DNA from: Nitrospiraceae bacterium
Lineage (GTDB): Bacteria > Nitrospirota > Nitrospiria > Nitrospirales > Nitrospiraceae
Reading direction: 5' to 3'
NCBI GenBank assembly: GCA_050731155.1
Contig: JBOHOI010000053.1
Location: 1-14,270, forward strand
DNA: 14,270 nt
Shown: positions 743-13,447 of the stretch, piece after piece
Numbering within the stretch: position 1 is the stretch's first letter
How the letters are laid out: each line of letters starts with the position of its first letter
Made by a program: the position numbers and the translations under genes
Notes under the pieces: model-generated
The model's input: only the letters and a program-made list of their open reading frames with translations
Told to the model about the DNA's origin: nothing
The model's database searches: none

Positions 743-1326
743 AGGAACAGGAGAGGTTTAAAGAACTCGATAATATAGTCCAAGAGCTTCGACATAATAT
801 TGAAGACCACCGATTTTATAAACTGTATTTCGCTCCTGATACTGATAAGTGGGACAAGTTCTGTGTTGCAATGGACACGCTGGAAGACACTGAGCTGGCT
901 TTGGCCCATTACTTCAACTATGGATTAGGCCGCAGTGATGAGGAGCGTTACCTCCGATTGTATGGAGTTCAGCAAGCCGTTTATCTACAACAAGACGCGA
1001 TTAGGGCTCTTGTTGAAGTCGTGCTTGAAAAGAAATTTGAGCCCTCTGCTGATTCTGCGTGGAGGGCAATCCGGGAAGTCCGCCGCCATATTGGTCACCC
1101 TATAGAAGTCAAGAAGGCCGGGTCGGTCCGAAGGACCTTCCTTACACGGGTCTACCTGGCTATGGGGCTTGTAGGGCTCATCACGAGGGACAGTAAAAAG
1201 GGGGAGAGCGAGCACTGGGGAGGGCAATTGGATGAGGTGTTGTTGGCTTATTTAGCTGAAGCCATTCCGATAGTTCGTGAGATCGGGGAAAGTGTCAAGA
1301 AAAGATGGCCTCTCCCTGAGGATTGA
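739..1326 (+). CDS. Hypothetical 195-aa protein embedded between hsdR and hsdS; candidate HEPN-like (R-x4-H) defence protein
   Basis: The ORF has a GTG start overlapping the hsdR stop (GTGA) and ends 1 nt before the hsdS ATG. It is markedly AT-richer than the flanking genes; a counted 60-nt sample at 761-820 was about 33% GC. It contains REVRRH/RRHIGH (R-x4-H) near residues 113-122. No recognisable enzymatic motif otherwise. Confidence 0.6.
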   Translation: MKEQERFKELDNIVQELRHNIEDHRFYKLYFAPDTDKWDKFCVAMDTLEDTELALAHYFNYGLGRSDEERYLRLYGVQQAVYLQQDAIRALVEVVLEKKFEPSADSAWRAIREVRRHIGHPIEVKKAGSVRRTFLTRVYLAMGLVGLITRDSKKGESEHWGGQLDEVLLAYLAEAIPIVREIGESVKKRWPLPED

Positions 1327-1327
1327 A

Positions 1328-2578
1328 ATGATTGCAAAAGCTTCAGGTGTAGAAACCCCACATTCGAAGCGTTCGTTGCCCGATGGCTGGCGGTGGGTGC
1401 GGCTGGGGGAGGTGTGCGAGGAACAGACTGGCACTCGTGATCCTCGTTCAGAGGCATTGAAACAGTTTCGCTATGTGGACATCACCAGTGTGGATAACCG
1501 CACGAAGCGGATGGTTGATCCCAAAACCTTAGTTGGCAGGGAGGCCCCAAGCCGGGCACGCCAAGTCATTAGGAAAAGCGACGTCCTCGTTTCGACAACA
1601 AGACCAAATCTGAACGCGGTCGCGCTGGTTCCATCTGGACTCGATGATGAAATTGCGAGCACTGGCTTCTGCGTCCTTCGGCCAAAAAGCGCCCTCAATC
1701 CCTCCTATTTATTCGGCTTTGTCCAAAGTGCGGAGTTTGTTCAATGTCTGTCGGACTTGGTCAAGGGTGCGTTGTATCCGGCGGTCACCGATAAGCAGGT
1801 TCGCGATCAATTCATACCCCTTCCACCGCTTGCCGAGCAGAAGCGCATTGCGGCGATCCTGAACGAGCAGATGGCGGTGGTGGACCGGGCGCGGGCCGCT
1901 GCCGAGGTGCAGTTGGAGGCGGCTAAGGCTCTCCCTGCCGCCTATCTTCGCGCCGTCTTCAACAGCCAAGAAGCCCGGCAGTGGCCGAGGAGAAGGCTAG
2001 GGGAGGTTTGCGAACTTTTGCCGTCCAAATCAATTGCAACAGACGGGGATGCAGAAGTCTTAGCCATCACGACAGCTTCTCTCACCGAAAGCGGGTTCGA
2101 GCCATCTGGTGTAAAACAGGCCAGAATGTGGGCCAATGATGTGACTGAGTGTGTGGTATCTCCTGGTGAAATCCTCATTGCTCGAAGTAACACACCAGAC
2201 CTCGTTGGGCGCGTCGCCATGTTTTCGGGAAATCCAAAGGAGGCGGTAGCTTCAGACCTAACAATTCGTCTTCGTGGGAATGGTGACAGAGTGAACTCGG
2301 CTTTTCTGACAGCCTATCTGTCGTTCCTCTACCTGACCGGTTATTGGAAGGAACGCGCGGGTGGAGCGAGTGGCTCCATGAAGAAAATCACGCGAACACA
2401 AATCCAAGAAGAGCGAGTTCCGGCTCCTCCTATCTCCGAGCAGGGGCGGATCGCGGCGGTCCTGAAGGAACAGATGGCGGTGGTGGAGCGGACACGTAAA
2501 GCGCTAGACGAACAACTCGACACGATCACCAAATTGCCCGCCACGCTCCTACGAATGGCATTCAACGGCGAGATCTGA
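1328..2578 (+). CDS. hsdS: Type I restriction-modification specificity subunit HsdS, with two target-recognition domains
   Basis: Two internal conserved HsdS repeats are present. The central one reads LPPLAEQKRIAAILNEQMAVVDRARAAAEVQLEAAKALPAAYLRAVFN and the distal one PAPPISEQGRIAAVLKEQMAVVERTRKALDEQLDTITKLPATLLRMAFNGEI; each follows a variable TRD. The ATG at 1328 is preceded by GAGGA. The track ORF begins at 1277, but that upstream part overlaps the preceding gene. Confidence 0.9.
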   Translation: MIAKASGVETPHSKRSLPDGWRWVRLGEVCEEQTGTRDPRSEALKQFRYVDITSVDNRTKRMVDPKTLVGREAPSRARQVIRKSDVLVSTTRPNLNAVALVPSGLDDEIASTGFCVLRPKSALNPSYLFGFVQSAEFVQCLSDLVKGALYPAVTDKQVRDQFIPLPPLAEQKRIAAILNEQMAVVDRARAAAEVQLEAAKALPAAYLRAVFNSQEARQWPRRRLGEVCELLPSKSIATDGDAEVLAITTASLTESGFEPSGVKQARMWANDVTECVVSPGEILIARSNTPDLVGRVAMFSGNPKEAVASDLTIRLRGNGDRVNSAFLTAYLSFLYLTGYWKERAGGASGSMKKITRTQIQEERVPAPPISEQGRIAAVLKEQMAVVERTRKALDEQLDTITKLPATLLRMAFNGEI

Positions 2579-2580
2579 AT

Positions 2581-3630
2581 ATGCCTCGTGGTCTCTCTGC
2601 CGAAGTCAGGACTCATCTTGAAAAGGCAATGGAATCAGCAATTCTCGCGGTCGAGGTTTATAACAAGCCAGCGACGAAGTTTCGTTCTGGTGGCTACATC
2701 GTGTTAATGACCATTGCGTGGACGGCTTTGTTTCATGCCATCTTTTTGAAACGTAGACAAAAACCTTACTACCGCAATGATCCGGATAACCCAAGGAGCC
2801 GCTACAAAAAGGTCGAAGGGGACTACAAAGCATGGGAGTTGGCAACTTGCTTAAAGAAATTCTATGGATCGAATAACCCACCTGAGCGCAAGAACTTGGA
2901 GTTCTTCGTTGGTCTTCGCAACAAAATCGAGCATCGTTCCATGCCTCAACTGGACCTCAAAATCTTTGGCGAATGTCAGGCCATGCTTTTCAATTTTGAG
3001 GATTGTCTCCTCAAGGAGTGTGGCCAGAAATACGGGCTGAATGAGAGCCTCACTATTGCCCTTCAGTTTTCCCGAATTCAGGATAGCGAGCAGGCGCGAG
3101 CAATTCGTGTGCTGCATCGTCCCCTCCATAAACACATCGAGTCGTACATTCAAACCTTCCGATCATCCTTGAGCAATGACATCGAGAGCGATCTTGCGTA
3201 TAGTTACAAGGTCTTCTTGATTCCTAAGCTGGCAGGTAATCAGGGGCAGGCAGATGTAGCGGTTGAGTTCGTTAAATTCGATCCGAGCACGCCCGACCAA
3301 ATGGAAACCTACGAGAAGATAGTCTCGCTAATAAAGCCAGCAGTGATCCAAGTCGCTAATCCAGGAAAACTTAAGGCCGGGGATGTTGCCAAAGCCGTCG
3401 CTGACGCGACCGGAAGGAAATTTACTGCAAGTAGTCATCACTCCCGTGCGTGGCGGTTCTACCGCATACGACCGCCCAATGGCGATCCCAGGCCTGAAGT
3501 AACTCAGACACAGTATTGTCAATGGGATGAAGCGCATCGGGACTATGTTTACACAGACGCTTGGAAGAAGTTCCTCATGTCTGAAATGAAAGACCCTACA
3601 AAGTACGAACACATAATGCATTCGACATAG
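2581..3630 (+). CDS. HEPN-like protein (DUF3644-like N-terminal domain with LRNKIEH motif) plus an uncharacterised ~200-aa C-terminal domain, embedded between hsdS and hsdM
   Basis: The ATG lies 2 nt after the hsdS stop. The N-terminus (AMESAILAVEVYNKPATKFRSGGYIVLMTIAWTALFHAIFLK …NLEFFVGLRNKIEHRS) matches my memory of the DUF3644 pattern (A.E.YNKP … L.ELRDN.IH). The RNKIEH stretch is a canonical HEPN R-x4-H RNase motif. AT-richer than the hsd genes; a counted 60-nt sample at 2701-2760 was about 42% GC. Confidence 0.7.
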   Translation: MPRGLSAEVRTHLEKAMESAILAVEVYNKPATKFRSGGYIVLMTIAWTALFHAIFLKRRQKPYYRNDPDNPRSRYKKVEGDYKAWELATCLKKFYGSNNPPERKNLEFFVGLRNKIEHRSMPQLDLKIFGECQAMLFNFEDCLLKECGQKYGLNESLTIALQFSRIQDSEQARAIRVLHRPLHKHIESYIQTFRSSLSNDIESDLAYSYKVFLIPKLAGNQGQADVAVEFVKFDPSTPDQMETYEKIVSLIKPAVIQVANPGKLKAGDVAKAVADATGRKFTASSHHSRAWRFYRIRPPNGDPRPEVTQTQYCQWDEAHRDYVYTDAWKKFLMSEMKDPTKYEHIMHST

Positions 3631-3674
3631 AGCCTAAGAATCAAAGAGACGCGCATGGCGAATTTGGAGAATGA

Positions 3675-5216
3675 ATGATGCCACGACCCCGCAAGGATGA
3701 AAACGCCAACGGTAGGCGCCTTGCGACCCAGCGATCCGTCAACGGCGCGATCAAGAGCATCTGCGACATCATGCGCAGGTCTAATTGCGCCGGCGCGCTG
3801 CAATATGTCCCTGAACTGACCTGGATTCTCTTCTTGCGTATCCTCGATGAGCGGGAGACTCGTGAGGCGGAGGAAGCCGAAGCAGTGGGCGCAGACTACG
3901 CACCGTCGCTGACCAAGCCGTATCGCTGGCAGGACTGGGCTGCGCCCAACGGGCCGAAGCGGAAGGAATTACAAGATGGGTCAATGGGGGCGTTCTTTGG
4001 CTTCGTCAACAGCGACTTGATCCCTCGCTTAAAGAAACTCCGTGAACAGCCCAACGCCACTTCGCGCCAAAAGGTCATCAGCGAAATCTTCTCCGGCATT
4101 GAGAAGACCCGCATCGATACCGAGCGCAATTTCCTGGATGTGTTGGATAAGGTCCACGAGATCAGCGCCGAGACCGTAGACCCCACGCATGTCTTCACTC
4201 TTTCGCAGGTGTACGAGGGGCTACTTCTCAAGATGGGCGAGAAGGGCAACGACGGGGGCCAGTTCTTTACCCCCCGCGAGATCATCCGGGCGATGGTAAA
4301 GGTGATCGACCCTAAGATCGGAGAGACGGTCTACGATCCGGGGTGTGGGACGGGGGGCTTCCTAGCACAGTCTTATGAATACATGCGCGACCGTTTGGGT
4401 GACAAGGCGACTGCTCCAGAGATTGAAACCCTTAAGCAACGAACCTTCTACGGACGCGAGAAGGATAATGCCGTCTACCCCATCGGCTTGGCCAACTTGG
4501 TCCTACACGATATTGATGAGCCACACATCTGGCACGGCAACACCTTGACCGGTGCGGAGACATACGGCGGTCTCTTCACCGGTGCCCCTGCCCTCTACGA
4601 CGTGGTGTTGATGAATCCGCCCTTCGGGGGCAAGGAAGGAAAGGATGCCCAGACACGGTTTGCCTACAAGACCGGCGCAACCCAGGTCTTGTTCCTTCAG
4701 CACGTCATCGACAGCCTCAAGCCCGGCGGGCGCTGCGGGATTGTGCAGGATGAAGGGGTGCTCTTCCGCACGAACGAGACGGCTTTCGTGCAAACCAAGC
4801 GCAAGTTGCTAGATGATTGCGACCTCCGGTGCATCGTCAGTCTTCCGGGTGGCGTCTTCACGGCGGCAGGGGCGGGTGTGAAGACGAACCTGCTCTTTTT
4901 CACGAAAGGGCGGCCCACGGAGAAGATTTGGTACTACGACCTGTCTGACATCAAGGTCGGTAAGAAGACTCCATTCACGCTAGATAAATTCGAGGAGTTC
5001 TTCCGTCTGCTCCCGACCCGTGCCGACAGCGAGCGAAGCTGGACCGTCACGCGGAAAGCGATCGAGGAGAAGAACTACGACCTCAAAGCAGTCAATCCGA
5101 ACGCCAAGAGCACTGAAGATACCCGCACCCCCGAAGAACTCTTGGATCTGATCGAAGCCAAAGGCCGCGAAGTCGCCGAAGCGCTCGCCACGCTCCGCGC
5201 CACCAGCAAGAAATAA
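3675..5216 (+). CDS. hsdM: Type I restriction-modification N6-adenine DNA methyltransferase subunit HsdM
   Basis: HsdM N-terminal domain signature (ALQYVPELTWILFLRILD). FFTPREI motif. SAM-binding motif I DPGCGTGGFL. Catalytic motif IV NPPFGG. GGAGA RBS at 3666-3670. The start could be the ATG at 3675 or 3678. Confidence 0.92.
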   Translation: MMPRPRKDENANGRRLATQRSVNGAIKSICDIMRRSNCAGALQYVPELTWILFLRILDERETREAEEAEAVGADYAPSLTKPYRWQDWAAPNGPKRKELQDGSMGAFFGFVNSDLIPRLKKLREQPNATSRQKVISEIFSGIEKTRIDTERNFLDVLDKVHEISAETVDPTHVFTLSQVYEGLLLKMGEKGNDGGQFFTPREIIRAMVKVIDPKIGETVYDPGCGTGGFLAQSYEYMRDRLGDKATAPEIETLKQRTFYGREKDNAVYPIGLANLVLHDIDEPHIWHGNTLTGAETYGGLFTGAPALYDVVLMNPPFGGKEGKDAQTRFAYKTGATQVLFLQHVIDSLKPGGRCGIVQDEGVLFRTNETAFVQTKRKLLDDCDLRCIVSLPGGVFTAAGAGVKTNLLFFTKGRPTEKIWYYDLSDIKVGKKTPFTLDKFEEFFRLLPTRADSERSWTVTRKAIEEKNYDLKAVNPNAKSTEDTRTPEELLDLIEAKGREVAEALATLRATSKK

Positions 5217-5272
5217 CCCCCTCTTTTTCTCCCCTCTTTCAGCGGGTTAGCAACATGGTTGCGCGTTTGTAT

Positions 5273-5311
5273 GCCGTATGGCAGCCCCCTCTGAGGGGGC
5301 TGCCATACGGC
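5273..5311 (+). terminator. 17-bp perfect GC-rich hairpin (gccgtatggcagccccc / tctga / gggggctgccatacggc) followed by a T-rich tract; probable intrinsic terminator of the hsd operon, or an operator palindrome
   Basis: Perfect inverted repeat read directly, with a 5-nt loop, 57 nt after the hsdM stop, followed by tcgttcacttatttctcttgttc. It overlaps the 5' extension of track ORF 5278, so the real start of the next gene is downstream. Confidence 0.45.
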
Positions 5312-5334
5312 TCGTTCACTTATTTCTCTTGTTC

Positions 5335-6456
5335 ATGATTCGTGAACATGGTACATTGGCGAACGCTATGAGAGGAATTGGACAGGAACCCCAGATAGTC
5401 GACTCCGCGCTGGAGCGATTGAAGAGCATTCATCCAGTCAAGGTAGTAAACCTACGCCGAGAGGTACATGTGGGAGATCGGCGTTGGGATGGCGAGGTGA
5501 CACTGAAGACTGATCGCGGCACGTTCCGTTACCTCTTTGAGGTCAAGACCAACTTGCGGCCACAGACCATACGACATCTGCTGATTCAGGCAGACGCGTA
5601 TCGCAAACAATGGGGTAAGGCTACAGGGCTTTTGCTGCTGGCCGATTACGTCAATCCCTCTTTAGGAGATCAGCTCAAAGACGCCGGCATCAATTTCATC
5701 GACACGGCAGGGAACTTGTTCTTGAAGCGGGAGCCGGGGCTGTATCTCTACGTCGAAGGGAAGAAGTCACCCGCCTCCACGAAGGAAAAGCCGACGCGGC
5801 TCTTTCAGCCAAGCGGCCTGACGTTGCTTTTCGGCTTGCTTGTTGAGCCTGAGTCCATCAACCACCCTTACAGGCATCTGTCGGAGGCAAACGGCATTGC
5901 CCTAGGAACAGTTGGTTGGGTCAAACGAGATTTACGAGAACATGGCTACCTGGAGCCCACCGGGAAGGATAGTTTTCGCCTAGTTCGTAAGAAGGACCTC
6001 TTAGATCGCTGGGTGCATGGGTACGCGAGCCGCCTCCGCCCTAAAGTTTTCCTCGGCGAGTATCGTGCCCTGTCGAATGATCTTGATACTGTCGTCAAAT
6101 CGTTCAAACAGTATGCCCTAGAACACGGCATGTCGTGGGGGGTATCAGGAGGGCTCGGTGCTGATGAGCTTGTACACCATTACCGAGGAAACACCGTCAC
6201 ACTCTTCGTCGAATCTTGGAGACACAATGAAGCTCTGAAAGAGCTGAAATGGTTGCCCGTCACAGGAGGCCCCATAACAGCCCTTAAAGGCTTTTCTCCT
6301 CGTGTCTTTCAGATGAGGGGGAAACAGGCCCGCTATCCGGTCGTGCACCCTCTCCTCATTTATGCGGAATTGCTCTATCAGGGGAGCGACCGTGCACTCG
6401 AAACGGCCCGCTTAATCTACAACGAGTTCCTGGAACCCTCCCTTGCCAAAGATTGA
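5335..6456 (+). CDS. Three-module protein: N-terminal PD-(D/E)xK-like domain, central winged helix-turn-helix (AbiEi/COG5340-like), C-terminal domain; probable regulator/antitoxin partner of the downstream nucleotidyltransferase
   Basis: The N-terminal ~150 aa carries …RRWDGEVTLKTDRGTFRYLFEVKTNL…, a D … ExK nuclease-fold pattern. The central region (LSEANGIALGTVGWVKRDLREHGYLEPTGKDSFRLVRKKDLLDRWV) looks like a wHTH. The stop overlaps the next ORF by 14 nt. The start is taken at ATG 5335, after the hairpin; ATG 5368 is an alternative. Confidence 0.55.
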   Translation: MIREHGTLANAMRGIGQEPQIVDSALERLKSIHPVKVVNLRREVHVGDRRWDGEVTLKTDRGTFRYLFEVKTNLRPQTIRHLLIQADAYRKQWGKATGLLLLADYVNPSLGDQLKDAGINFIDTAGNLFLKREPGLYLYVEGKKSPASTKEKPTRLFQPSGLTLLFGLLVEPESINHPYRHLSEANGIALGTVGWVKRDLREHGYLEPTGKDSFRLVRKKDLLDRWVHGYASRLRPKVFLGEYRALSNDLDTVVKSFKQYALEHGMSWGVSGGLGADELVHHYRGNTVTLFVESWRHNEALKELKWLPVTGGPITALKGFSPRVFQMRGKQARYPVVHPLLIYAELLYQGSDRALETARLIYNEFLEPSLAKD

Positions 6457-7240
6457 AGGCGATCTGGCAGAGGCACTGAAACTGCTCCGCAACTATTTCG
6501 AGCGGAGAGAAATATCTTTTGCACTTGTAGGCGCCCTTGTGCCAGCCCTTTTGCTTTCATCCGAAGTCGGAGCCCGAGAGACACGCGATGCGGACCATGT
6601 GATCAAGCTGGCTTCATGGGCAGAGTGGGATGCTGTGATCGCCGAACTCGTCGAATTAGGATTCAGGCGAGGGCGAGGGGAGCAAGAGCACCGATTGTAT
6701 TACAAAACTGGTGAGATTGACTTGATTCCTTATGGAGTCACAAACGGACCTGATGAAGTTCTGATTTGGCGTAAATCCGGGAACCAAATGAACATGACCG
6801 GATTCTCTGACGTATTCCGATATGCCAAACCGACGGAGGTTACGCATGGACTGACTCTTCCTGTTGTGCCGCTCTGGCTCTTTGCCGTCCTTAAGATAAT
6901 CGCCTATCTCGATCGTGAATCCCCGCGAGACCTTTCCGACCTCATCTATGTGCTGGAGCGTTATGAAACATCGGGAGAAGAGTCTCGCCGCTTTGAGGTC
7001 GCAAGTGGCGTTGATGGTGTGACGTATGAAACCTCGGGGGCGTATCTCCTGGGATGCGATGTTCGAGAAAATGCCTCAGATAAGGCCTTGGAATTGATCA
7101 AAGGATTTGTCGCTCCCATCACGGACGAGCATCACAAAGCGATCAATACAATTCTCCGAGAGGAAAACCTCCTGCAGTCTGAGGATCGAAGGCAGTCTGT
7201 GTATCGTTTAATCCAAGCCTTTCGAAAAGGATTAGCCTGA
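6443..7240 (+). CDS. Nucleotidyltransferase-fold protein (AbiEii / minimal NTase-like), probable toxin/effector of a type IV TA-like or Abi pair
   Basis: The N-terminal stretch FALVGALVPALLLSSEVGARETRDADHV fits the pol-beta NTase pattern hG[GS]-x9-13-DxD. Size, position immediately after a wHTH gene, and the overlapping start (TTG at 6443) are typical of AbiEi/AbiEii-like operons. Confidence 0.55.
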   Translation: MPKIEGDLAEALKLLRNYFERREISFALVGALVPALLLSSEVGARETRDADHVIKLASWAEWDAVIAELVELGFRRGRGEQEHRLYYKTGEIDLIPYGVTNGPDEVLIWRKSGNQMNMTGFSDVFRYAKPTEVTHGLTLPVVPLWLFAVLKIIAYLDRESPRDLSDLIYVLERYETSGEESRRFEVASGVDGVTYETSGAYLLGCDVRENASDKALELIKGFVAPITDEHHKAINTILREENLLQSEDRRQSVYRLIQAFRKGLA

Positions 7241-7320
7241 ATGCGAACAAGAAGGGACATGCTACTTTTTCCAGAAGCTTCCACACACATAAGCCGCTGG
7301 CTGGATGCCCTCTTCGAATC

Positions 7321-7345
7321 CCTCCTCCCCCGCGCCGTCCGCGCC
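7321..7345 (+). repeat. Copy 1 of intergenic motif R1 (CCTCCTCCCCCGCGCCGTCCGCGCC)
   Basis: Pyrimidine tract plus a GC mini-palindrome, read directly. A partial second copy (ctcctccccgcggc) lies at 7366-7379. Confidence 0.6.
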
Positions 7346-7514
7346 TCACCCTTGACTCCTCCCCGCGGCTGGCCTCGCCGGTTTTTTCCTCCGGTCCTTC
7401 ACGCGCGGTGTTCACGCCCCTGCGCAGGGCCGGGCAGCTCGCGGCCCAAAAGCCGCCTTCACGCCCCCAACATCTCTGGACACGCTGCTCAGCCAGGAGT
7501 CGGCCAGAAGCATC

Positions 7515-7543
7515 TTGACAAGAACCGAGGAAAGAGCTACTAA
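7515..7543 (+). promoter_or_regulatory. Candidate sigma70-type promoter upstream of the SWIB gene (TTGACA, 17-nt spacer, TACTAA)
   Basis: Perfect -35 hexamer TTGACA at 7515-7520. The -10 hexamer TACTAA matches the TATAAT consensus only 3 of 6, after a 17-nt spacer. Lies about 150 nt upstream of ATG 7691. Confidence 0.25.
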
Positions 7544-7690
7544 CAGGCACTTGTTGGGGCTCCTTGAGGGCGTGAGGGCCGCCCACGCCACAAGGCACGT
7601 CCTAGCACCTCACCGTAGTTATCGTTCACACACAGCAGCGAGACGCCGCAAAACAATGTAGCCTCACGCTGCGAACCTTGAGGAGGGAAA

Positions 7691-7948
7691 ATGGCAAGAA
7701 AAATGAACAACACATTCATGAAACCTGTAAACCCGTCTCGTGATTTGGCAGAAGTGGTGGGAAGCAAAGCTCTTCCGCGAACAGAGGTGACCAAAAAGCT
7801 TTGGGCGTACATCAAAAGGCATAAGCTCCAGGATTCCAAAAACAGACGCAACATCAACGCTGACGACACATTGAGGAAAGTATTTGGCGGCAAGAGAACG
7901 GTCAATATGTTTGAGATGACCAAGCTCGTCAGCAAGCACCTGAAATAA
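7691..7948 (+). CDS. SWIB/MDM2-domain protein (85 aa)
   Basis: Sequence …LAEVVGSKALPRTEVTKKLWAYIKRHKLQDSKNRRNINADDTLRKVFGGKRTVNMFEMTKLVSKHL is a textbook bacterial SWIB-domain sequence. AGGAGGG RBS directly upstream. Confidence 0.85.
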   Translation: MARKMNNTFMKPVNPSRDLAEVVGSKALPRTEVTKKLWAYIKRHKLQDSKNRRNINADDTLRKVFGGKRTVNMFEMTKLVSKHLK

Positions 7949-7989
7949 CCAGAACATTCCCCCTCGTTCGGCGCCTCAGTCAGAACGTT

Positions 7990-8008
7990 CGGGGCCCACG
8001 GGCCCCGT
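7990..8008. terminator. Short perfect GC hairpin (cggggccc acg gggccccg) 42 nt downstream of the SWIB gene; possible terminator
   Basis: 8-bp stem with a 3-nt loop, read directly. There is no clear U-tract on either strand. Confidence 0.3.
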
Positions 8009-8125
8009 GCTGTCTTGCCGAGGCGCCGTGTCATGTCCAGGCGGGACCACCAGGCCGCTGAACGATACCGTGGTGCCACGCGATCATCGGCCGATTCCAT
8101 CCCGAGCCACGATGATGGGACTCGC

Positions 8126-8141
8126 CCTCCTCCCCCGCGCC
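8126..8141 (+). repeat. Copy 2 of R1 (CCTCCTCCCCCGCGCC)
   Basis: Identical 16-mer core in the convergent intergenic space between the SWIB gene and the - strand gene. Confidence 0.6.
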
Positions 8142-8224
8142 CTCAAAAGTGAGTTACGAACAAGCCTGGCAGGGGAACCCCGCCGCTTGATGCTCTCTGG
8201 ACGCGAGGCTTGCGAAGCATCCTC

Positions 8225-8659
8225 TCAGTCGCCTCCTTTGAACGCATCCCGGTCGTATTCCTCGCCGACGTCATCATGTTCCTGGATTCCCAGAGCGCTG
8301 AGGAACGACACTCGCAAGGCTCGGACTTGCGTGAGGCTCCGGCGGTCAGCTTTTTCCGCTCCGGCCAGAAACCGGTCGCAGAGTTTCAGGCCTTGCTGAA
8401 AGTGTTCGGCGATCGGGTCTTCGGCGGCTTGCTGCCAGGTACTATAAATGAGGAATTCCTGGAAGGCGCGGGCGGTAGGGTAGTGCTCGCCGAGCGTCAG
8501 GAGCTGGCGGTACGCCTGCGCGGCTTCGTCCCCGGCGCTCGCAGAGAAGGCGGCCTCCCATTCGGCAGCCGATGCACCATCAGCGCCCAGCTCGTTGCGC
8601 GTCTGCGAGAGCTGGAATGCGGTGTGGGCGGCGACGGCTGGGTCGAACGAGAGATCCAT
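8225..8659 (-). CDS. Hypothetical protein (~144 aa from ATG 8659; a GTG at 8746 would give 173 aa)
   Basis: In the - strand frame, third-codon positions are strongly G/C-biased (GCC, GTC, CAC, ACC …), which in a high-GC genome is the signature of a real gene. AAGGGAG lies upstream of ATG 8659. The overlapping + strand ORF 8210..8824 lacks this bias. Confidence 0.55.
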   Translation of the reverse strand: MDLSFDPAVAAHTAFQLSQTRNELGADGASAAEWEAAFSASAGDEAAQAYRQLLTLGEHYPTARAFQEFLIYSTWQQAAEDPIAEHFQQGLKLCDRFLAGAEKADRRSLTQVRALRVSFLSALGIQEHDDVGEEYDRDAFKGGD

Positions 8660-8972
8660 TATCCCGTCTTTTACTCCCTTCCGCACACTTTCCGCAATTC
8701 CGTCTTCGCGCGTTGGAGTAGGCGCTTGTCTTTGGCACTGAGCCACCTGCGCTTAACAGACAAGTCTGGGTTCCCGCTCTTGACACCTCCCTTTGGACAG
8801 CCTAGCTTTGCTTCTGCTGACTGATTCCTCAGACCATCCATTGGTTCCTCTTCAAGATCTGGAGCGGATGGCCCTGTTGTCGGAGCGGAAGGAGCCGCGG
8901 GAGGTTCAGCGGGAGGGACTGGAGAGGAAAGGGCTGCTGCCAAAGGACAAACGCTTTCGTCATGAGTGAGCT

Positions 8973-9362
8973 GTGCCTCCACTCGATCTGACGTGCCCAT
9001 CTTGTGGGACCGAACGGACCCAACGCCTGAATCTCCTGCGGCGGTTTTATGGTGACGGTGGTTTTGTTGGGCACGCGTTTCTCTCCGAAGGGCTTGAACG
9101 CCCTCACCAGCCGTGGGGATTTACGGCTGGCTTTCTTGTCGGGCTTCTCCTCGGTGCCATCTCGTATGTGATCCTTCCCGAGGCGTACCAGCTCTTCTCA
9201 GTACTGCCCCTGGTCCTGGGTTGGCTGGGCGTTGGGGTCAGGGCTCGGATGAAATACCATGACAAGCGGGCGAAGTGGGAGAGCGCCCTCGACCAGTACT
9301 TCATGTGCCTGCGATGTGGGGACGTCTTTCGCCCCCGCAAACAAAGGCCCGACGTTCCATGA
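8973..9362 (+). CDS. Small zinc-ribbon membrane protein (CPSCG … CLRCG flanking two hydrophobic helices)
   Basis: GTG start. Two CxxC pairs at the N- and C-termini bracket hydrophobic segments (FTAGFLVGLLLGAISYVIL, LFSVLPLVLGWLGVGV). Confidence 0.45.
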   Translation: MPPLDLTCPSCGTERTQRLNLLRRFYGDGGFVGHAFLSEGLERPHQPWGFTAGFLVGLLLGAISYVILPEAYQLFSVLPLVLGWLGVGVRARMKYHDKRAKWESALDQYFMCLRCGDVFRPRKQRPDVP

Positions 9363-9387
9363 CTCAGAAGCTCTCCTCATCGCGTAA

Positions 9388-9540
9388 GAAGAAAAGGCGG
9401 GGTCAGGTCTGGCCATCACGCACCGGCTTGCCCGCGACAAAGCCAGCCTCGACATCTTCTGGTTCAAGGACGAGTCCCTCAAAGAGTCCGACAATCTCCA
9501 CGGCGCGCTGGAACAGTTTGAGGCGATCCAAGCAGATTGA
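9388..9540 (+). pseudogene. hsdM: Remnant of the C-terminal ~50 codons of a second, different-family type I hsdM gene
   Basis: A 51-codon open frame reads …ITHRLARDKASLDIFWFKDESLKESDNLHGALEQFEAIQAD*. The (A/R)xKxxLDIFWLKDESL…DNL…ALEQF pattern is, from memory, the conserved extreme C-terminus of EcoKI-type HsdM proteins. The intact hsdM at 3675-5216 ends quite differently. No upstream hsdM body is present. Confidence 0.45.
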
Positions 9541-9581
9541 GCCGACACGTACATGCTGAACGCTGATGGAGATCCTCTTCG

Positions 9582-10028
9582 ATGAATCTTCGCGCCGCCC
9601 TGATCTTCCTCGTCCTCGGATTCATCGGCCTGTTGATCGTGATGGGGACGGCCAGTTTCGTTCGGTGGCTGAAGATTTCCTACCCTCGGTCCTTCCGCTC
9701 GATTCTAGTTGTGCTCTGCCTCTTGATGGTGGGTGCCGGGGTCTGGGTCTACATGGAAGCGAAGGAGCGACCAGTGTTCCACGCGGGCGATCTCGTCACG
9801 CTCGAGGAGCCGGTGGTTGCCAGAGTCATCCCTGCAGGTCGCAGCGCGCCCGCGACAAGCTGTATTGTGGAGATTTACGAGCATCTCTCGGTGGTGGACG
9901 TTCAAACCGGAACCATGACGGCGCGCGTCGAGAGCAACAATCGATCCGGTCCGAGCTACTGTCCAATCGGCGCTGACGTGCACATCGAGCTGGCCTGGCT
10001 TCACCGCTATACTCTCACGCACCGGTAG
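9582..10028 (+). CDS. Hypothetical membrane protein (two predicted TM helices at the N-terminus)
   Basis: ATG with a GGAGA RBS 9 nt upstream. Strong GC3 bias (CTT CGC GCC GCC CTG ATC TTC CTC GTC CTC …). Hydrophobic stretches LIFLVLGFIGLLIVMG and ILVVLCLLMVGAGVWVY. Confidence 0.6.
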   Translation: MNLRAALIFLVLGFIGLLIVMGTASFVRWLKISYPRSFRSILVVLCLLMVGAGVWVYMEAKERPVFHAGDLVTLEEPVVARVIPAGRSAPATSCIVEIYEHLSVVDVQTGTMTARVESNNRSGPSYCPIGADVHIELAWLHRYTLTHR

Positions 10029-10031
10029 TCC

Positions 10032-10058
10032 TGACCCCGATCCATCGCGACAACCCGA
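10032..10058 (+). repeat. Repeat R3, copy A (TGACCCCGATCCATCGCGACAACCCGA)
   Basis: A 27-nt segment that recurs at 12105-12132 with 2 mismatches. Same orientation. Confidence 0.55.
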
Positions 10059-10121
10059 CGACGCCCTTCCGGCCGCTGGACCACTCGCTTGACCGCCGTC
10101 GGTAAACGAGCCCTTTCGCTC

Positions 10122-10145
10122 CCTCGTCCCCCGCGCCTCCCGCAG
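10122..10145 (+). repeat. Copy 3 of R1 (CCTCGTCCCCCGCGCCTCCCGCAG)
   Basis: One mismatch in the core. Lies 89 nt downstream of repeat R3 and about 200 nt upstream of the SPFH gene. Confidence 0.55.
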
Positions 10146-10350
10146 AGCATTCTGACTGGACGGAAAAGCGTTGCCGTGCCAGGAGGCGGCGGTCGCCGGT
10201 CACCAGATCATTCGCGTCCGCGCCGTCTTCACCGCTCACACTCCGCTAGACATCGCGTGCTGTCTCGTGTAACGTTCTCCCGGCATTTCTCTCATCGCTT
10301 GTCTGCTCCATTGCCTTCACCCCCAGGTCGCCCGGGATAAGGAGGTCACC

Positions 10351-11214
10351 GTGTCCATCGAATTGGCGGTCGCAGTCGTGGCAGTTGTGGTCCTGTTAGT
10401 CGCCACCATCAAGATCGTCCCGGAATATCAGCGCATCGTCGTCCTCCGTCTGGGCAAAGTCCTCCCACGGCCGAAGGGGCCGGGCCTTGTTCTCATCATT
10501 CCGGTCATCGATCGGCCCATTTGGGTGGACCTCCGTGAGACGTATCTCGAGGTCCCGCACCAGACCTGCATCACGAAGGACAATGCGCCGATCTCCATCG
10601 ACTTTCTCATCTATTCGAAAGTCCTCGACCCAACCTCCAGCGTGGTCCAGGTCCAAGACTTCGCCGGGGCTTCTCAGGGGATTGCCACCACGACTCTCCG
10701 GGCGGTTGTGGGTGACATCCCGCTCGATGATGTGTTGGCCAAGCGCGATCAGATCAACCACCTCTTACAAGCAAGAATGGACGAGGTGACCCAACGCTGG
10801 GGGGTGAAGATCACGACGGTTGAGATTCGGGAAATTACGCCGCCGAAAGAGGTCCAGGAAGCGATGACGCGTCAGATGTCCGCCGAGCGGAGCCGGCGGG
10901 CCACGGTCACCGAGGCAGAAGGGGCTAAGCAGGCGGCCGTGACGGTGGCCGAGGGTGATAAACAGGCGGCGATCCTGAAAGCTGAAGGGGACCGCCAGGC
11001 GGCGAGCTTGCGGGCGGAAGGGTTTGCTCTTGCCCTGAGAAAGATCTTTGAGGCGGCCAAGGAGGTGGACTCGAAAACCATGAGCCTGCAATACCTTGAG
11101 ACCTTGAAGGTCATGGGTACCAGCCCCTCCACCAAATTCATCTTCCCGATGGAGTTCAGCTCTTTCCTGGCCGGCTTGTTGGGAGACAGTAAGAAGGCAT
11201 TCGGTAAAGAGTGA
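10351..11214 (+). CDS. SPFH/band-7 (stomatin/prohibitin-like, HflK/C family) membrane protein
   Basis: N-terminal TM helix followed by the band-7 core (IVPEYQRIVVLRLGKV…DLRETYLEVPHQTCITKDNAPISIDFLIYSKVLDP…) and a C-terminal coiled coil with A/E/Q-rich heptads. GTG start preceded by AAGGAGGT. Confidence 0.9.
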   Translation: MSIELAVAVVAVVVLLVATIKIVPEYQRIVVLRLGKVLPRPKGPGLVLIIPVIDRPIWVDLRETYLEVPHQTCITKDNAPISIDFLIYSKVLDPTSSVVQVQDFAGASQGIATTTLRAVVGDIPLDDVLAKRDQINHLLQARMDEVTQRWGVKITTVEIREITPPKEVQEAMTRQMSAERSRRATVTEAEGAKQAAVTVAEGDKQAAILKAEGDRQAASLRAEGFALALRKIFEAAKEVDSKTMSLQYLETLKVMGTSPSTKFIFPMEFSSFLAGLLGDSKKAFGKE

Positions 11215-11247
11215 ACGTCAGCCGCCGGCTGCGGCCCTCTTCCACTC

Positions 11248-11290
11248 CCTCCTCCCCCGCGCCTTCCGCGGCGCATTCTTGTGATTCGCA
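11248..11290 (+). repeat. Copy 4 of R1, extended form (CCTCCTCCCCCGCGCCTTCCGCGGCGCATTCTTGTGATTCGCACC)
   Basis: The core plus a conserved 3' extension (CCTTCCGCGG … ATT.TTGTGATTC) shared with copies 5 and 6. Lies about 80 nt upstream of the DUF433 gene. Confidence 0.6.
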
Positions 11291-11311
11291 CCTCAGCCCA
11301 GTACGGGACAG

Positions 11312-11340
11312 GTAGACCGGAACTCAAGCCTGGGCTATAA
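11312..11340 (+). promoter_or_regulatory. Candidate sigma70 promoter for the DUF433-DUF5615 operon (TAGACC, 17-nt spacer, TATAAT)
   Basis: Perfect -10 TATAAT at 11335-11340, 28 nt upstream of ATG 11369. The -35 hexamer matches 4 of 6. A GAAGG RBS follows. Confidence 0.35.
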
Positions 11341-11368
11341 TAGCGGCAACAATAGCGAAGGTCATTCC

Positions 11369-11614
11369 ATGACGCTCGTCATCGGCGAGAAAGAACTGAG
11401 CCAGTTGCCGGTCACCACTGATCCAGCCATTCTCAGTGGCACGCCCGTGTTCCGTGGTACGCGAGTACCAGTGGACGCCCTCATCAGCAACCTGGAAGCT
11501 GGCCTCACGTTAGACGAGTTTCTGGGAAACTTCCCCACCGTTAGACGCGAGCAGGCTTTGCAGGTCCTTGAGTTCTCCAAAGCGACGCTCCTGAAGCTCG
11601 GCAAGACCGCTTGA
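11369..11614 (+). CDS. DUF433-family protein (putative antitoxin-like partner)
   Basis: The 81-aa protein reads …DPAILSGTPVFRGTRVPVDALISNLEAGLTLDEFLGNFPTVRREQALQVLEF…, matching the DUF433 pattern (GxPxIRGTRIPV … EEIL..YP.LTREDI.AAL.YA). Its 4-nt overlap (ATGA) with the next gene is consistent with an operon. Confidence 0.8.
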   Translation: MTLVIGEKELSQLPVTTDPAILSGTPVFRGTRVPVDALISNLEAGLTLDEFLGNFPTVRREQALQVLEFSKATLLKLGKTA

Positions 11615-11937
11615 GAATCCTGCTCGACGAATCCGCCCCGCGAGTGATCAAGACTCGCCTTCCCAAATTCGCGATCTCCACGGTGCAGGAGATGGGCTGG
11701 ACAGGGCTGAAAAACGGAGAGTTGCTGGACTTGGCCGAACAGCAGTTCGATGTGTTCATCACGGCTGATCAACAGCTTCGCTATCAACAGAACCTGACCG
11801 GCAGGCGTCTCGCAGGGCTCGCCTTGCCCAGCAATCAGGTGCCTGCCGTGACAGAGCTTCTGCCCGCCATCGAGCGGGCCCTCAACTCAATTCAACCTGG
11901 AACCTTTGTTGACATTCCGCTTTCTTCAGGGGGCTGA
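11611..11937 (+). CDS. DUF5615-family (PIN-like, Mut7-C-type) protein; putative toxin partner of DUF433
   Basis: MRILLDESAPRVIKTRL…GELLDLAEQQFDVFITADQQ matches the DUF5615 N-terminus (MK.L.DEN.P …). Its operon partner is a classic DUF433 gene. Confidence 0.8.
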   Translation: MRILLDESAPRVIKTRLPKFAISTVQEMGWTGLKNGELLDLAEQQFDVFITADQQLRYQQNLTGRRLAGLALPSNQVPAVTELLPAIERALNSIQPGTFVDIPLSSGG

Positions 11938-11980
11938 CCTCTCTAGTGACCGCATCCGGTTGAATGGAATTGTTTCTTCC

Positions 11981-12027
11981 CCTCCTTCCCCGCGCCTTCC
12001 CCATGTGTGATTCTCTCGTCACGTCAG
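11981..12027 (+). repeat. Copy 5 of R1, extended form (CCTCCTTCCCCGCGCCTTCCCCATGTGTGATTCTCTCGTC…)
   Basis: The core has one substitution. The extension is …TGTGATTCTC. Lies in convergent intergenic space, followed by R2 and R3. Confidence 0.55.
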
Positions 12028-12056
12028 CTGGCTTACCGCCCAAGACCTCCCCGACT

Positions 12057-12683
12057 TCACGACGTGCGCGCGGTGGGCTGTCCATGCCAGGGCAGCAGGG
12101 AATAAGTTGACCCCGATCCATCGTTACAACCCGATTCGGGTCTGCCCACTGCCTGGATAGGGGACTCAACTGCCTGGCGGGCTTGGTTGAGGGACTTGAC
12201 CATGTCCACGAGTCGCGCTCGCCCTTCCTCGGAGATTTCGGTGAACCGTACACCCATTCCGGGAGAGAACCTGTATTGGTCGGCTTTCGGGCAAACCCAC
12301 GCGACGGTCCCCTTCGCTCCCAGCCATTCAGAGGGATAGTCAGGGAGCGCAACCTCCATCATCAGTTTGGTCCCGACCGGAAGCGGGTCGTTGCTTTCAA
12401 TAAAAAGCCCTTCATCCCCACCCCCTGAAGGCCGGCTCTCGAACCAGTGACCGTCAGGCGTACGGTAGCGGACATTCAGAACGAGGAAGTCCATCAACTC
12501 AGTGCGCAGACCCTCTGGTTGATTCTGGGCGCGTAAGCCCAGGATCAGGTCAATCACAGATCCCCAGGGCACGGTGCCCATTTGCGCGCCCCCCACGCCG
12601 AGCAGCCGAATGGTTTCACGCTCGTGGTCCAGCTCCAGCAATTTTCCCTTATGTGCCTTGGTGGCAGTGACTGGCAGCTTCAT
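12057..12683 (-). CDS. PilZ-like domain protein (TIGR02266-type C-terminal domain, possibly degenerate), 208 aa
   Basis: The C-terminal half (…LVLNVRYRTPDGHWF…GGGDEGLFIESNDPLPVGTKLMMEVALPD…GTVAWVCP…GMGVRFTEISEEGRARLVDMV) parallels the PilZ-like TIGR02266 pattern (RVPV…GGGLFV…PLPVGT.V.L.L.LP…G.VVWV…PGMGIQF.DL.EEAR.RL). ATG at 12683 with a GGAGGA RBS. The last ~15 codons read into repeat R2. Confidence 0.55.
   Translation of the reverse strand: MKLPVTATKAHKGKLLELDHERETIRLLGVGGAQMGTVPWGSVIDLILGLRAQNQPEGLRTELMDFLVLNVRYRTPDGHWFESRPSGGGDEGLFIESNDPLPVGTKLMMEVALPDYPSEWLGAKGTVAWVCPKADQYRFSPGMGVRFTEISEEGRARLVDMVKSLNQARQAVESPIQAVGRPESGCNDGSGSTYSLLPWHGQPTARTS
12062..12104 (+). repeat. Repeat R2, copy A (GTGCGCGCGGTGGGCTGTCCATGCCAGGGCAGCAGGGAATAAG)
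   Basis: A 43-nt segment that recurs at 13319-13361 with 2 mismatches, read directly. Both copies create the spurious peptide …LLPWHGQPTART in - strand ORFs. Confidence 0.65.
12105..12132 (+). repeat. Repeat R3, copy B
   Basis: Immediately follows R2 copy A, suggesting R2, R3 and R1 are parts of one composite element. Confidence 0.55.
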
Positions 12684-12895
12684 CAGGTCCTCCGTTACTG
12701 AGTGGAACTGATTCCCAACTCCCTGACCAGGTCCTGGAGACGTTCTTGCTCGGGGGGCGCAGGGAGAGAAAGCCCACACCGAACTCTCGGCCCGTTGTCC
12801 ACGACTGAACTCGCGGTGCAGAGGATGGGCTCACACCAGAGACAAACAACATCACTTGCTAGCAGTCGCAACGTCATGAACACCACCAGCGCATC

Positions 12896-12941
12896 AAACT
12901 GTACCTAATGATAATCACCACGCACAAAACTGTACCTAAGT
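12896..12941 (+). repeat. Two direct copies of AAACTGTACCTAA, 33 nt apart, in an AT-rich non-coding stretch
   Basis: Exact 13-mer at 12896-12908 and 12929-12941, read directly. It may be a paired transcription-factor site or an att-like core. Confidence 0.4.
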
Positions 12942-13318
12942 GTCAATCCGTTCAATGCCACAAGTGAGGTATCCCCCCCTCAAAAGAGGTACTCGTAGAG
13001 GAAGTCCAGCGCGACCATTTTCAAGGGGGCTCGCTCAAGGACTAAGATCTTCTCTTGTACCTTGAACTAGGATTTTGGCGAGGAGGATAGCAATTGAGAG
13101 GTTGAGAGGCTTGCGCTCATGAGGGAGTTACCCTGGTCCCGGTTCCACTCCCGATTTTTGTCCTGATTCAGAATCTAACTCGGTCGCAATTGGGCGCAAG
13201 AAAACTGGCCTAAGGCCTTGTTTTCATTGCTTCGGCGTAGTAGTCCTTCGCTGTTGATCGTCATTGGTCGCAGAGTCCTCGGGCGCTCTGCAAAACTGCG
13301 ACGCAACAGTGCGCGCGG

Positions 13319-13361
13319 TGGGCTGTCCATGCCAGGGCAGCAGGAAGTAAGCCGCTGGGCA
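13319..13361 (+). repeat. Repeat R2, copy B
   Basis: See copy A. Same orientation, 1.25 kb away. Confidence 0.65.
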
Positions 13362-13400
13362 ACCCCCTCGACTGCCGCCGCTAGGCGATCGCGTCCCCTC

Positions 13401-13447
13401 CCTCCTCCCCCCGCGCCTTCCGCGGGGAATTGTGAGGTCTCTGTCCG
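13401..13447 (+). repeat. Copy 6 of R1, extended form (CCTCCTCCCCCCGCGCCTTCCGCGGGGAATTGTGAGGTCTCTGTCC)
   Basis: The core contains a 7-bp hairpin, ccccgcg / ccttc / cgcgggg. Lies about 220 nt upstream of the phosphatase gene and is preceded by R2. Confidence 0.6.

Follow-up and report, generated by a model that had tools for sequence, protein, structure and literature searches.

A 17-nt C-rich core as the candidate junction site of a gene cassette array in uncultured soil Nitrospiraceae

The window analyzed here, one entire 14.3-kb contig of a metagenome-assembled genome (MAG) labelled Nitrospiraceae bacterium, carries a short repeat, the 17-nt core CCCTCCTCCCCCGCGCC, in six copies between positions 7320 and 13417, all on the plus strand and all intergenic. 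We propose that this core and the right arm TTCCGCGGGGAA often found with it form the site at which a site-specific recombinase, acting in trans, makes its crossovers, and that the copies are junctions in an array resembling an integron or a cluster of attC sites lacking integron-integrases (CALIN), with a site of a new kind; we put the probability of this reading at roughly 45%. A DNA-level role at cassette junctions is indicated by the polarity of the copies, their restriction to one array, the invariance of 17 nt, the breakpoints at the core and the re-ordering of cassettes, and the most economical explanation is that an enzyme encoded elsewhere carries out site-specific recombination at the core. 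A wider possibility, which we regard as doubtful, is that a soil Nitrospiraceae clade possesses a second, independently evolved integron-like system, with a 17-21-nt C-rich core that includes a short GC palindrome and an unlinked recombinase. Such a system would capture, excise and re-order small promoter-bearing cassettes (toxin-antitoxin, defence, stress) and would use neither a folded site of the attC type nor IntI.

The initial annotation of this DNA described a six-copy repeat, and the repeat is real. With up to three mismatches allowed, the 16-mer CCTCCTCCCCCGCGCC matches five times against 0.45 expected, a number reached in none of 200 shuffles; it is exact at 7321, 8126 and 11248 and has one mismatch at 10122 and 11981, always on the plus strand. 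The sixth copy (13400-13417) contains one additional C, and the 9-mer CCCCGCGCC detects exactly the six copies and no other site (6 versus 0.24 expected). Alignment of the six gives 16 invariant columns, (C)CCTC.T.CCCCGCGCC..C, outside which the multiple alignment retains a weaker likeness over about 30 nt upstream and about 20 nt downstream. A 44-copy profile found no extra core in window positions 1-7300 and no copy on the minus strand. The copies had also been described as uniform in orientation, which holds, and as non-coding, which is borne out by their position between genes as called in two other assemblies of the same organism. The exception is copy 1, which overlaps a 100-aa open reading frame (ORF) at 7241-7543 called as a gene in one assembly; this ORF matches no protein family and is probably not a real gene but a by-product of the repeat.

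The core was sought in other genomes by an exact-pattern scan of 185,579 species, one genome each (596 Gb), using a pattern that detects 1 in 3 to 1 in 7 copies. The scan returned 57 loci, which comprise 53 single chance matches in GC-rich organisms and four arrays: L018, L020 and L045, all from MAGs labelled Nitrospirae, and L005, a scaffold labelled 'Deltaproteobacteria'. Each of these four genomes yields one locus only, a co-oriented array. At this detection rate a dispersed family with even 20 further copies should have been detected, while the MAGs are incomplete and a few further loci could be missed in genome-wide counts. Set against chance, as the initial annotation had proposed, the genome-wide count divides in two, with chance level outside the array and extreme density inside it. 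Ten additional array fragments came from a metagenome scan. L073 contains at least eight co-oriented copies in 10 kb (nine with a looser pattern), and the 44-copy profile finds about 45 copies in 13 loci, with a single orientation within each locus. No core was found in 25 kb of flanking housekeeping DNA (8-9 kb each in L003, L087 and L091), and viral, phage and plasmid collections held nothing related to it. A phage- or plasmid-borne element was considered and rejected, since six exact matches in IMG/VR were all unrelated coding or GC-rich sequence and BLAST gave no plasmid or phage match.

The array is confined to some uncultured soil Nitrospiraceae, in which it is hypervariable. It adjoins the genes PHP-FolB-MoaC in the window, L087 and L091. 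In L094 and L096, with PHP 82-85% identical and thus as close as L087 and L091, the PHP site has neither array nor core. The array of the L018 genome is not at the PHP locus, because the PHP locus of the same MAG (L097) has none, and no lone core was found at the PHP-side site of the array-less L094, L096 and L097. Relatives with a 71-73% identical version of o148, an exported 148-aa protein of the window (L088-L093; one genome of 3.8 Mb), have the gene in an ordinary context without cores. On the 5' side, three arrays have an insertion sequence (IS) transposase at or near the contig end: IS110 at 178-1221 of L091, a Mutator/IS256 type at 56-877 of L087 and IS3 at 7398-7999 of L018. These transposases may simply be a sign of local plasticity, or the real boundary of the array may be concealed behind them. 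The L005 scaffold (VBKE01000508.1), which contains two runs of N and apparently comes from the same soil study as L020 and L073, is 94-98% identical to these two Nitrospirae contigs and is therefore probably mis-binned. In full-text literature searches, such arrays were not described for Nitrospira or Nitrospirae.

Comparison of the arrays shows the same genes in different company. Genes with different neighbours across genomes include o148, DUF433, SWIB, a 144-aa gene, DUF4926, DUF2283 and GroES. While o148 stands directly after a core in L018, L045, L078 and L087, it follows an ORF fragment in the window. SWIB is the first cassette of the window and the last before PHP in L091 and L087. DUF433 lies between SPFH and PilZ in the window and between DUF2283 and GroES in L020, and its cassette has other neighbours also in L073 and L005. 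The DUF433/DUF5615 pair is kept in the window (11368-12000) and in L005; in L020 (1814-2127) and L073 the arm and core stand directly after DUF433, the DUF5615 toxin gene having been lost. The AbiEii gene and the first core of the window are kept as a unit in L073 (81% protein identity), and the 144-aa gene is 89% identical to a gene of L068 which lies on the opposite side of a core.

Breakpoints of homology fall at the core. L018 and L078 have a DUF4926 gene, arm and core in common and diverge fully four nucleotides past the core (core+TYCC). The alignment of the window with L076 covers o148, the arm and core 3 and ends at core +5, and window positions 7200-7343 are homologous to the AbiEii-plus-core unit of L073, with the high-scoring segment pair (HSP) ending at core +7. 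Overall, of 220 HSP ends in comparisons between arrays, 43 fall no more than 25 nt from the end of a core, a zone that makes up 3.9% of the sequence. L005 is 94-98% identical to L020 and L073 within cassettes, yet their order differs (E-C-A-B versus A-B-C-D-E-F), and at L005f 2383, in gap-free sequence, the left arm and core of L020_5214 are joined to the right flank of L020_1724. The core is the sole sequence common to both parents of this junction, which places the exchange within 15-17 nt. The core itself is invariant across genomes in which orthologous genes are 74-90% identical and promoter regions are unalignable. A role as a 'transposition target' had been among the suggestions of the initial annotation; such a role, or one in recombination, is plausible.

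Two further observations concern o148. In L018, truncated copies of the gene (first 45-53 codons) stand behind a core at 1166-1376 and 2378-2574 (flipped coordinates), each fused to other repeat modules, which is evidence of repeated deletion within the array. In L087, an insertion of about 160 nt with terminal inverted repeats (GAGGATGCTGCAAAAGCCC ... GGGCTTTTCCAGCATCCTC) separates o148 from its core at 6530-6690 and looks like a miniature inverted-repeat transposable element (MITE) of an unrelated family.

The core is accompanied by arms on both sides. To the right, T(T/C)CC is found in about 80% of copies and GCGG(G/A)GAAyTnTGA in about 40%, giving the pattern TTCC-GCGG-GGAA-yTnTGA, and in copies without these motifs the likeness breaks off after GCGCC. 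The corresponding 3' extension in the window (TTCCGCGG..ATT.TGTGA) had been reported for three copies; it is present in copies 3, 4 and 6 and additionally, in part, in copy 5. The reported GC mini-palindrome fared less evenly: it has 5 bp in copy 4 and 7 bp in copy 6 and is weak or absent in copies 1, 2, 3 and 5. The best copies read CCCCGCG-CCTTC-CGCGGGG, and at least five of the seven pairs form in 11 of 62 candidate copies versus 2.9% by chance. To the left, nearly every core is preceded by a small hairpin and a C/T-rich tail. These left arms belong to a few types, each of which travels with its upstream gene: a short form AAAACGGTGTCAGGAACCGTTTTCT, a long form AAAAGGTGCCAGGCTACTTTTCTAGAAAC...CTGCCTTGATGCGT which has an internal indel relative to the short one, and arms with a GC hairpin, for example those of window copies 1, 3, 4 and 6. 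Within the short-form stem, 72% of cells are paired. A CsrA-type GGA loop in the hairpin GGTGTCAGGAA was considered and rejected, as the long-form arm has GGC there and the stem is without covariation support.

The individual copies of the window, all on the plus strand, illustrate this variety. Copy 1 (7320-7336, CCCTCCTCCCCCGCGCC) lies 3' of the AbiEii stop at 7240, with a left arm (about 7254-7319) consisting of the small hairpin AGCCgctGGCT and a C/T tail; downstream, at 7349-7379, comes CCCTTGACT..GGCCTCGCC, a promoter-like module with a match in the module that follows the core in L073 and L064. In copy 2 (8125-8141) the likeness to other copies ends directly 3' of GCGCC. Copy 3 (10121-10137, CCCTCGTCC..., one mismatch) has modules D14 and F as its left arm (10032-10120) and TCCCGCAGAGCATTCTGAC as its right arm (10138-10156). 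Copy 4 (11247-11263) is preceded by the hairpin GCCGC-cggct-GCGGC and CCTCTTCCACT (11216-11246) and followed by TTCCGCGGCGCATTCTTGTGA (11264-11284), after which comes the promoter-like site of the DUF433/DUF5615 pair. Copy 5 (11980-11996, CCCTCCTTCC...) has the left arm CCGGTTGAATGGAATTGTTTCTTC (11957-11979), which together with the core is 91% identical to L020 2082-2127, and is followed by module E (11997-12063) and module D8. Copy 6 (13400-13417) has the best palindrome, with CCCCGCG at 13409-13415, the spacer CCTTC and CGCGGGG at 13421-13427; its left arm is F' (13352-13399) and its right arm, GGGGAATTGTGAGG, extends to 13437.

Between cores, several short modules (E, D8, D14 and F) occur repeatedly. 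D8 has two plus-strand copies in the window, 12064-12106 (43 nt, into which the PilZ ORF extends) and 13309-13351, and D14 likewise two, at 10032-10058 (plus strand, TGACCCCGATCCATCGCGACAACCCGA) and 12108-12134, being found also ahead of cores in L020, L073, L068 and L087. L018 contains a gene-free core-E-D8-F-core unit which lacks the PilZ segment, and the PilZ segment of the window is inserted into such a unit; window positions 13310-13423 are homologous to the uninterrupted E-D8-F-core unit of L018.

From this layout, a mechanism can be outlined in which a recombinase encoded elsewhere in the genome would act at the core. The palindrome is laid out like a tyrosine-recombinase core site, with the breakpoint in or beside its spacer, and exchange might take place in or just 3' of ...CCCCGCG|CCTTC|, the spacer of the imperfect palindrome CCCCGCG-CCTTC-CGCGGGG. 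The left half-site would then stay attached to the cassette upstream of it and the right arm to the one downstream, and cassettes could be excised and reinserted in the manner of an integron, via a site unrelated to attC.

Several findings weigh against recombination at the core by a dedicated enzyme. About 60 kb of array sequence, drawn from eight or more genomes, yielded no recombinase, but only IS transposases (IS110, IS256-type and IS3); this search covered the genes of the window, the gene calls of L087 and L091, and the 25 most frequent of 34 Pfam families among 122 ORFs of eight loci. Neither an excised circle nor an empty site was seen in the sequences compared. The right half of the palindrome is absent from most copies. 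The plus-strand stop codon located 33-177 nt before five of the six window cores is compatible with a role at RNA 3' ends. Modules other than the core also bracket insertions: the two D8 copies form a 95%-identical direct repeat around a 1.2-kb PilZ segment, and by inspection two diverged modules of the GGTGCCAGG type bracket a MazF pair in L045, so that homologous recombination between any repeated modules fits equally. Finally, all comparisons were made on short-read metagenome assemblies, in which a repeat of 20-40 nt can break contigs and, rarely, join them chimerically, and the L005 scaffold contains N gaps and was binned as a deltaproteobacterium.

The bracketing modules lead directly to the alternative that survives best, which we nevertheless consider unlikely: the repeats could be a scaffold for homologous recombination without any dedicated recombinase, the core and arms being primarily, for example, a protein-binding or insulator sequence. 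RecA-dependent exchange within the chromosome, or with DNA taken up from relatives, would then shuffle the segments between repeats. Besides the direct repeats around PilZ and the MazF pair, the left arms S, L, F and G are pieced together, mosaic-fashion, from shared segments, and the failure to find a recombinase points the same way. The crossover between L005 and L020, however, took place within just 15-17 nt of identity, which is short for efficient RecA-mediated homologous exchange. Homologous recombination also leaves unexplained why 17 nt stay invariant amid decaying flanks and why orientation is uniform, and an order of E-C-A-B versus A-B-C-D-E-F requires more than unequal crossing-over.

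Another possibility, somewhat less credible again, is a role in RNA at the 3' end of cassettes, in which the hairpin, the pyrimidine tract (UUUUCUCCCUCCUCCCCC) and the GC hairpin would terminate or insulate transcription, as an intrinsic terminator or a Rho loading site silencing read-through between acquired genes. The stop codons before five of six window cores would be expected on this basis, as would the co-orientation of 28 of the 34 called array genes with the cores, the hairpin before most cores and the C-rich, G-poor tract. One copy was flagged as terminator-like, at 11259-11274; it was the only one, and the total number of such sites equals that in shuffles. The 120-nt DNA folds around each window copy, however, are no better than those of shuffled sequence (z of -0.3 to -1.1), and hairpin covariation is not significant (score reached in 48 of 500 shuffles). 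Core orientation is moreover independent of transcription, in that window copies 2 and 6 and copies c1 and c3 of L091 abut minus-strand genes or promoter regions; window copy 6 and the two L091 copies, which lie in promoter regions of minus-strand genes, have no plus-strand gene upstream at all. The adjoining housekeeping genes never use the element, some plus-strand genes have no hairpin (SIMPL in L087), and a terminator does not need 17 invariant nucleotides.

Every unit is flanked by direct repeats of one core, and PHP-FolB-MoaC adjoins the array in three genomes, as could be expected had small integrative elements accumulated in tandem at a single attachment site. In this quite improbable scenario each unit arrived with a lambda-type integrase since lost, and the core is the identity segment of att, as in tycheposons or cis-mobilizable elements (CIMEs). 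A precedent exists in the tycheposon islands of Prochlorococcus, in which direct att repeats separate cargo-only remnants at fixed chromosomal positions. There, as in CIMEs and integrative and conjugative elements of streptococci, att is part of a tRNA or tmRNA gene, units measure several kb and integrases or their fragments are found. Here, by contrast, units measure 0.1-2 kb, far below the size of such elements, no integrase or fragment was found in the arrays, and the core does not come from a tRNA, tmRNA or other RNA gene. Derivation of att from tRNA or tmRNA, prompted by the T-loop-like TTCGAATCC before copy 1, was rejected, as ARAGORN found no such gene in the window and nine loci and the T-loop is absent from core copies other than copy 1; Rfam gave no match at E<=1 in the window, nor at E<=0.1 in seven array loci. 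Array-less PHP-side sites, furthermore, have no single core that could have served as attB, and the array of the L018 genome is not at PHP.

Least probable is the classification favoured by the initial annotation, a selfish repeat multiplied locally and resembling a repetitive extragenic palindrome (REP), bacterial interspersed mosaic element (BIME) or MITE. In its favour, the element is short and extragenic, in part palindromic, and combines with other short modules into mosaics. Against it, the element occupies one locus per genome in a single orientation (100% co-oriented). Neither terminal inverted repeats nor target duplications accompany it, the array loci searched contained no RAYT or IS200-type gene, and there were no viral, phage or plasmid matches.

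Site-specific recombination at the core remains our preferred reading, and the cassettes of the window are described with it in mind. Cassettes appear self-contained, carrying what look like their own promoters and terminators as judged from motifs. The DUF433/DUF5615 pair is preceded by a promoter-like TAGACC-17-TATAAT at 11313-11341, TGGACA-17-TACTAT sites lie 3' of cores in L045, and a promoter-like CCCTTGACA..TAGCCT occurs in several loci. The core itself does not act as a simple promoter, in agreement with the initial annotation: a promoter or operator at fixed distance was rejected on inspection because 19 to 355 nt separate the core from the next start codon and the -35-like TnTGAC of the right arm has no consistent -10. 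By inspection, the consensus sequences of sigma-54, extracytoplasmic function (ECF) and sigma-32 factors and Shine-Dalgarno/anti-Shine-Dalgarno pairing gave no consistent fit, and polar motifs of the FtsK-orienting or Chi-like kind fail to explain a clustered 17-nt intergenic element.

Cassette 1 (7337-8124, plus strand) contains the SWIB-domain gene at 7691-7948. A 29-nt imperfect inverted repeat (7969-8028) directly 3' of this gene is probably its own terminator, since a different strong GC hairpin is found there in L045 and L087; a search for SWIB homologues was uninformative as the family is too widespread. Cassette block 2 (8142-10120) is mixed in orientation. The 144-aa gene (8225-8659), with a terminator-like hairpin read from the sequence at about 8172-8188, and a 56-aa gene are on the minus strand, and they are followed by a 129-aa zinc-ribbon-like gene (8973-9362), an ORF fragment (about 9400-9540) and o148 (9582-10028). 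The fragment is a short open frame terminating in ...DKASLDIFWFKDESLKESDNLHGALEQFEAIQAD and a stop; its end is reminiscent of the C-terminus of type I methylase (M) subunits, in which case it would be a remnant of a second restriction-modification system, yet NCBIfam, PDB and comparison with HsdM of the window gave no support for this. Cassette 3 (10138-11246, plus strand) carries an SPFH/Band 7 gene at 10351-11214, and cassette 4 (11264-11979, plus strand) the pair of a DUF433 antitoxin-like and a DUF5615/PIN-like toxin gene at 11369-11937.

Cassette 5 (11997-13399, minus strand) carries a PilZ-domain gene at 12057-12683. The last 26 or so residues of this ORF are encoded by modules D8 and D14 (12057-12195, minus strand), so the C-terminus as annotated (…LLPWHGQPTARTS) probably results from read-through into repeat DNA and does not belong to the protein. 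Upstream of PilZ, about 620 nt (12684-13308) contain no convincing gene; AAACTGTACCTAA occurs there twice, 31 nt apart, in an AT-richer stretch at 12896-12939. After the last core come a low-molecular-weight phosphatase and then PHP, FolB, MoaC, MoaE, MoaA, NicO and AccD (L003), and no core was found in the L003 housekeeping genes past the array.

The other end of the window, positions 1-7240, is a defence block made up of a type I restriction-modification system (HsdR C-terminus, an unknown 195-aa gene, HsdS, DUF3644 and HsdM) followed by an AbiEi/AbiEii pair. Exact-protein look-ups with the restriction-modification genes, aimed at extending the window leftward, gave no match. HsdS contains two 79%-identical internal repeats (1822-1893 and 2425-2496). 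Between hsdM and abiEi, at 5273-5311, there is a perfect 19-bp palindrome (GCCGTATGGCAGCCCCCTC / GAGGGGGCTGCCATACGGC) that overlaps the start codon annotated for AbiEi; a terminator and an operator are both conceivable, and the true AbiEi start could be further downstream. In relatives, the cargo of the arrays includes MazF, HicAB, PIN, Fic, GmrSD and GroES. Cassettes at 2293-5094 of L020 and 5592-8393 of L073 contain GroES, a CPXCG zinc-ribbon protein, a DUF1328-like membrane protein, CsbD and a BON-domain protein, and several of these small-protein genes of the general-stress type are preceded by a common promoter-like motif, C(C/T)TGACACCTCCCCA..CCTCGCCTT.

Integrons, which are recognised through the fold of attC and through IntI, are to our knowledge the only well-understood means of filing single genes as cassettes in an array on the chromosome. 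If our reading is true, an array with the same logic (polar junction sites, a cargo rich in toxin-antitoxin and defence genes, and rapid re-ordering among close relatives) and an unrelated site would evade every integron finder, and cassette-type gene storage would have arisen more than once. The 17-nt core, together with array-bearing and array-less relatives, offers a handle on the exchange of defence and stress genes in uncultured soil relatives of nitrifiers. Array-bearing MAGs are ACREI2, GCA_975325915.1, GCA_023248295.1, GCA_016207025.1 and VBOJ01, and GCA_020027965.1, GCA_051293815.1 and GCA_976986435.1 are relatives without the array. Even on modest readings the core is a marker of a recombination hotspot, and it is a frequent cause of contig breaks, and possibly of mis-joins, in these MAGs.

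Among known systems, REP and BIME sequences, like MITEs, are short extragenic elements, partly palindromic and mosaic with short motifs. Such elements, however, form hundreds of dispersed copies in both orientations, whereas there is one strictly polar array per genome here. The REP-associated tyrosine transposase (RAYT; tnpA-REP, IS200-like) was found neither in the window, L087 and L091 nor in the other array loci searched, and, as to the terminal inverted repeats and target-site duplications that mark MITEs, no inverted repeat brackets the core copies. The motif GGTG(T/C)CAGG occurs 19 times forward and five times in reverse, and by inspection its reverse copies in L020 lie within -35-like promoter motifs.

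The pdif modules of Acinetobacter plasmids have 28-bp XerC/XerD sites with an AT-rich centre and alternating orientation. They and the integrative mobile elements exploiting Xer (IMEXs) resemble the present array in being small modules, often toxin-antitoxin, bounded by short sites, without a recombinase of their own and, as is proposed here, moved by that of the host; the sites here differ in being GC/C-rich, all direct and chromosomal. A Xer/dif site has 11-nt XerC and XerD arms and a 6-nt spacer; by inspection, the core here is C-rich and asymmetric, with 7-nt GC arms and a 5-nt spacer in its palindrome.

A canonical attC site was rejected on both its motif and its fold. Two RYYYAAC...GTTRRRY pairs occur in the 14 kb, one of them intragenic and neither at the repeat (shuffled sequence averages 0.55 pairs and has at most 6), and the invariant columns of the core copies contain neither AAC nor GTT. 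An attC-like hairpin of 57-141 nt is seen neither in the 120-nt folds around the copies, which do no better than shuffled sequence, nor in the gene-free units of 220-270 nt, which form no single long stem on either strand. No attI, Pc or intI was found in the available array sequence, in which array heads are mostly at contig ends. The conserved block here is a 17-nt C-rich non-palindromic one, and several cassettes have their own promoter-like sites, in both of which the array differs from integrons. The likenesses lie in the arrangement. Co-oriented short sites stand at the 3' end of small cassettes, genes are mostly co-oriented with the sites, and close relatives differ in which cassettes they carry and in what order, with breakpoints at the sites. 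Toxin-antitoxin pairs, defence genes and small genes of unknown function abound in the cargo, as is typical of sedentary integrons. As in a CALIN, there is no integrase in the immediate array, and sites resemble each other within a lineage as VCR-type repeats do. Although its site fails the attC definition, the array is by analogy closest, in its logic and its cargo, to a sedentary chromosomal integron or a CALIN.

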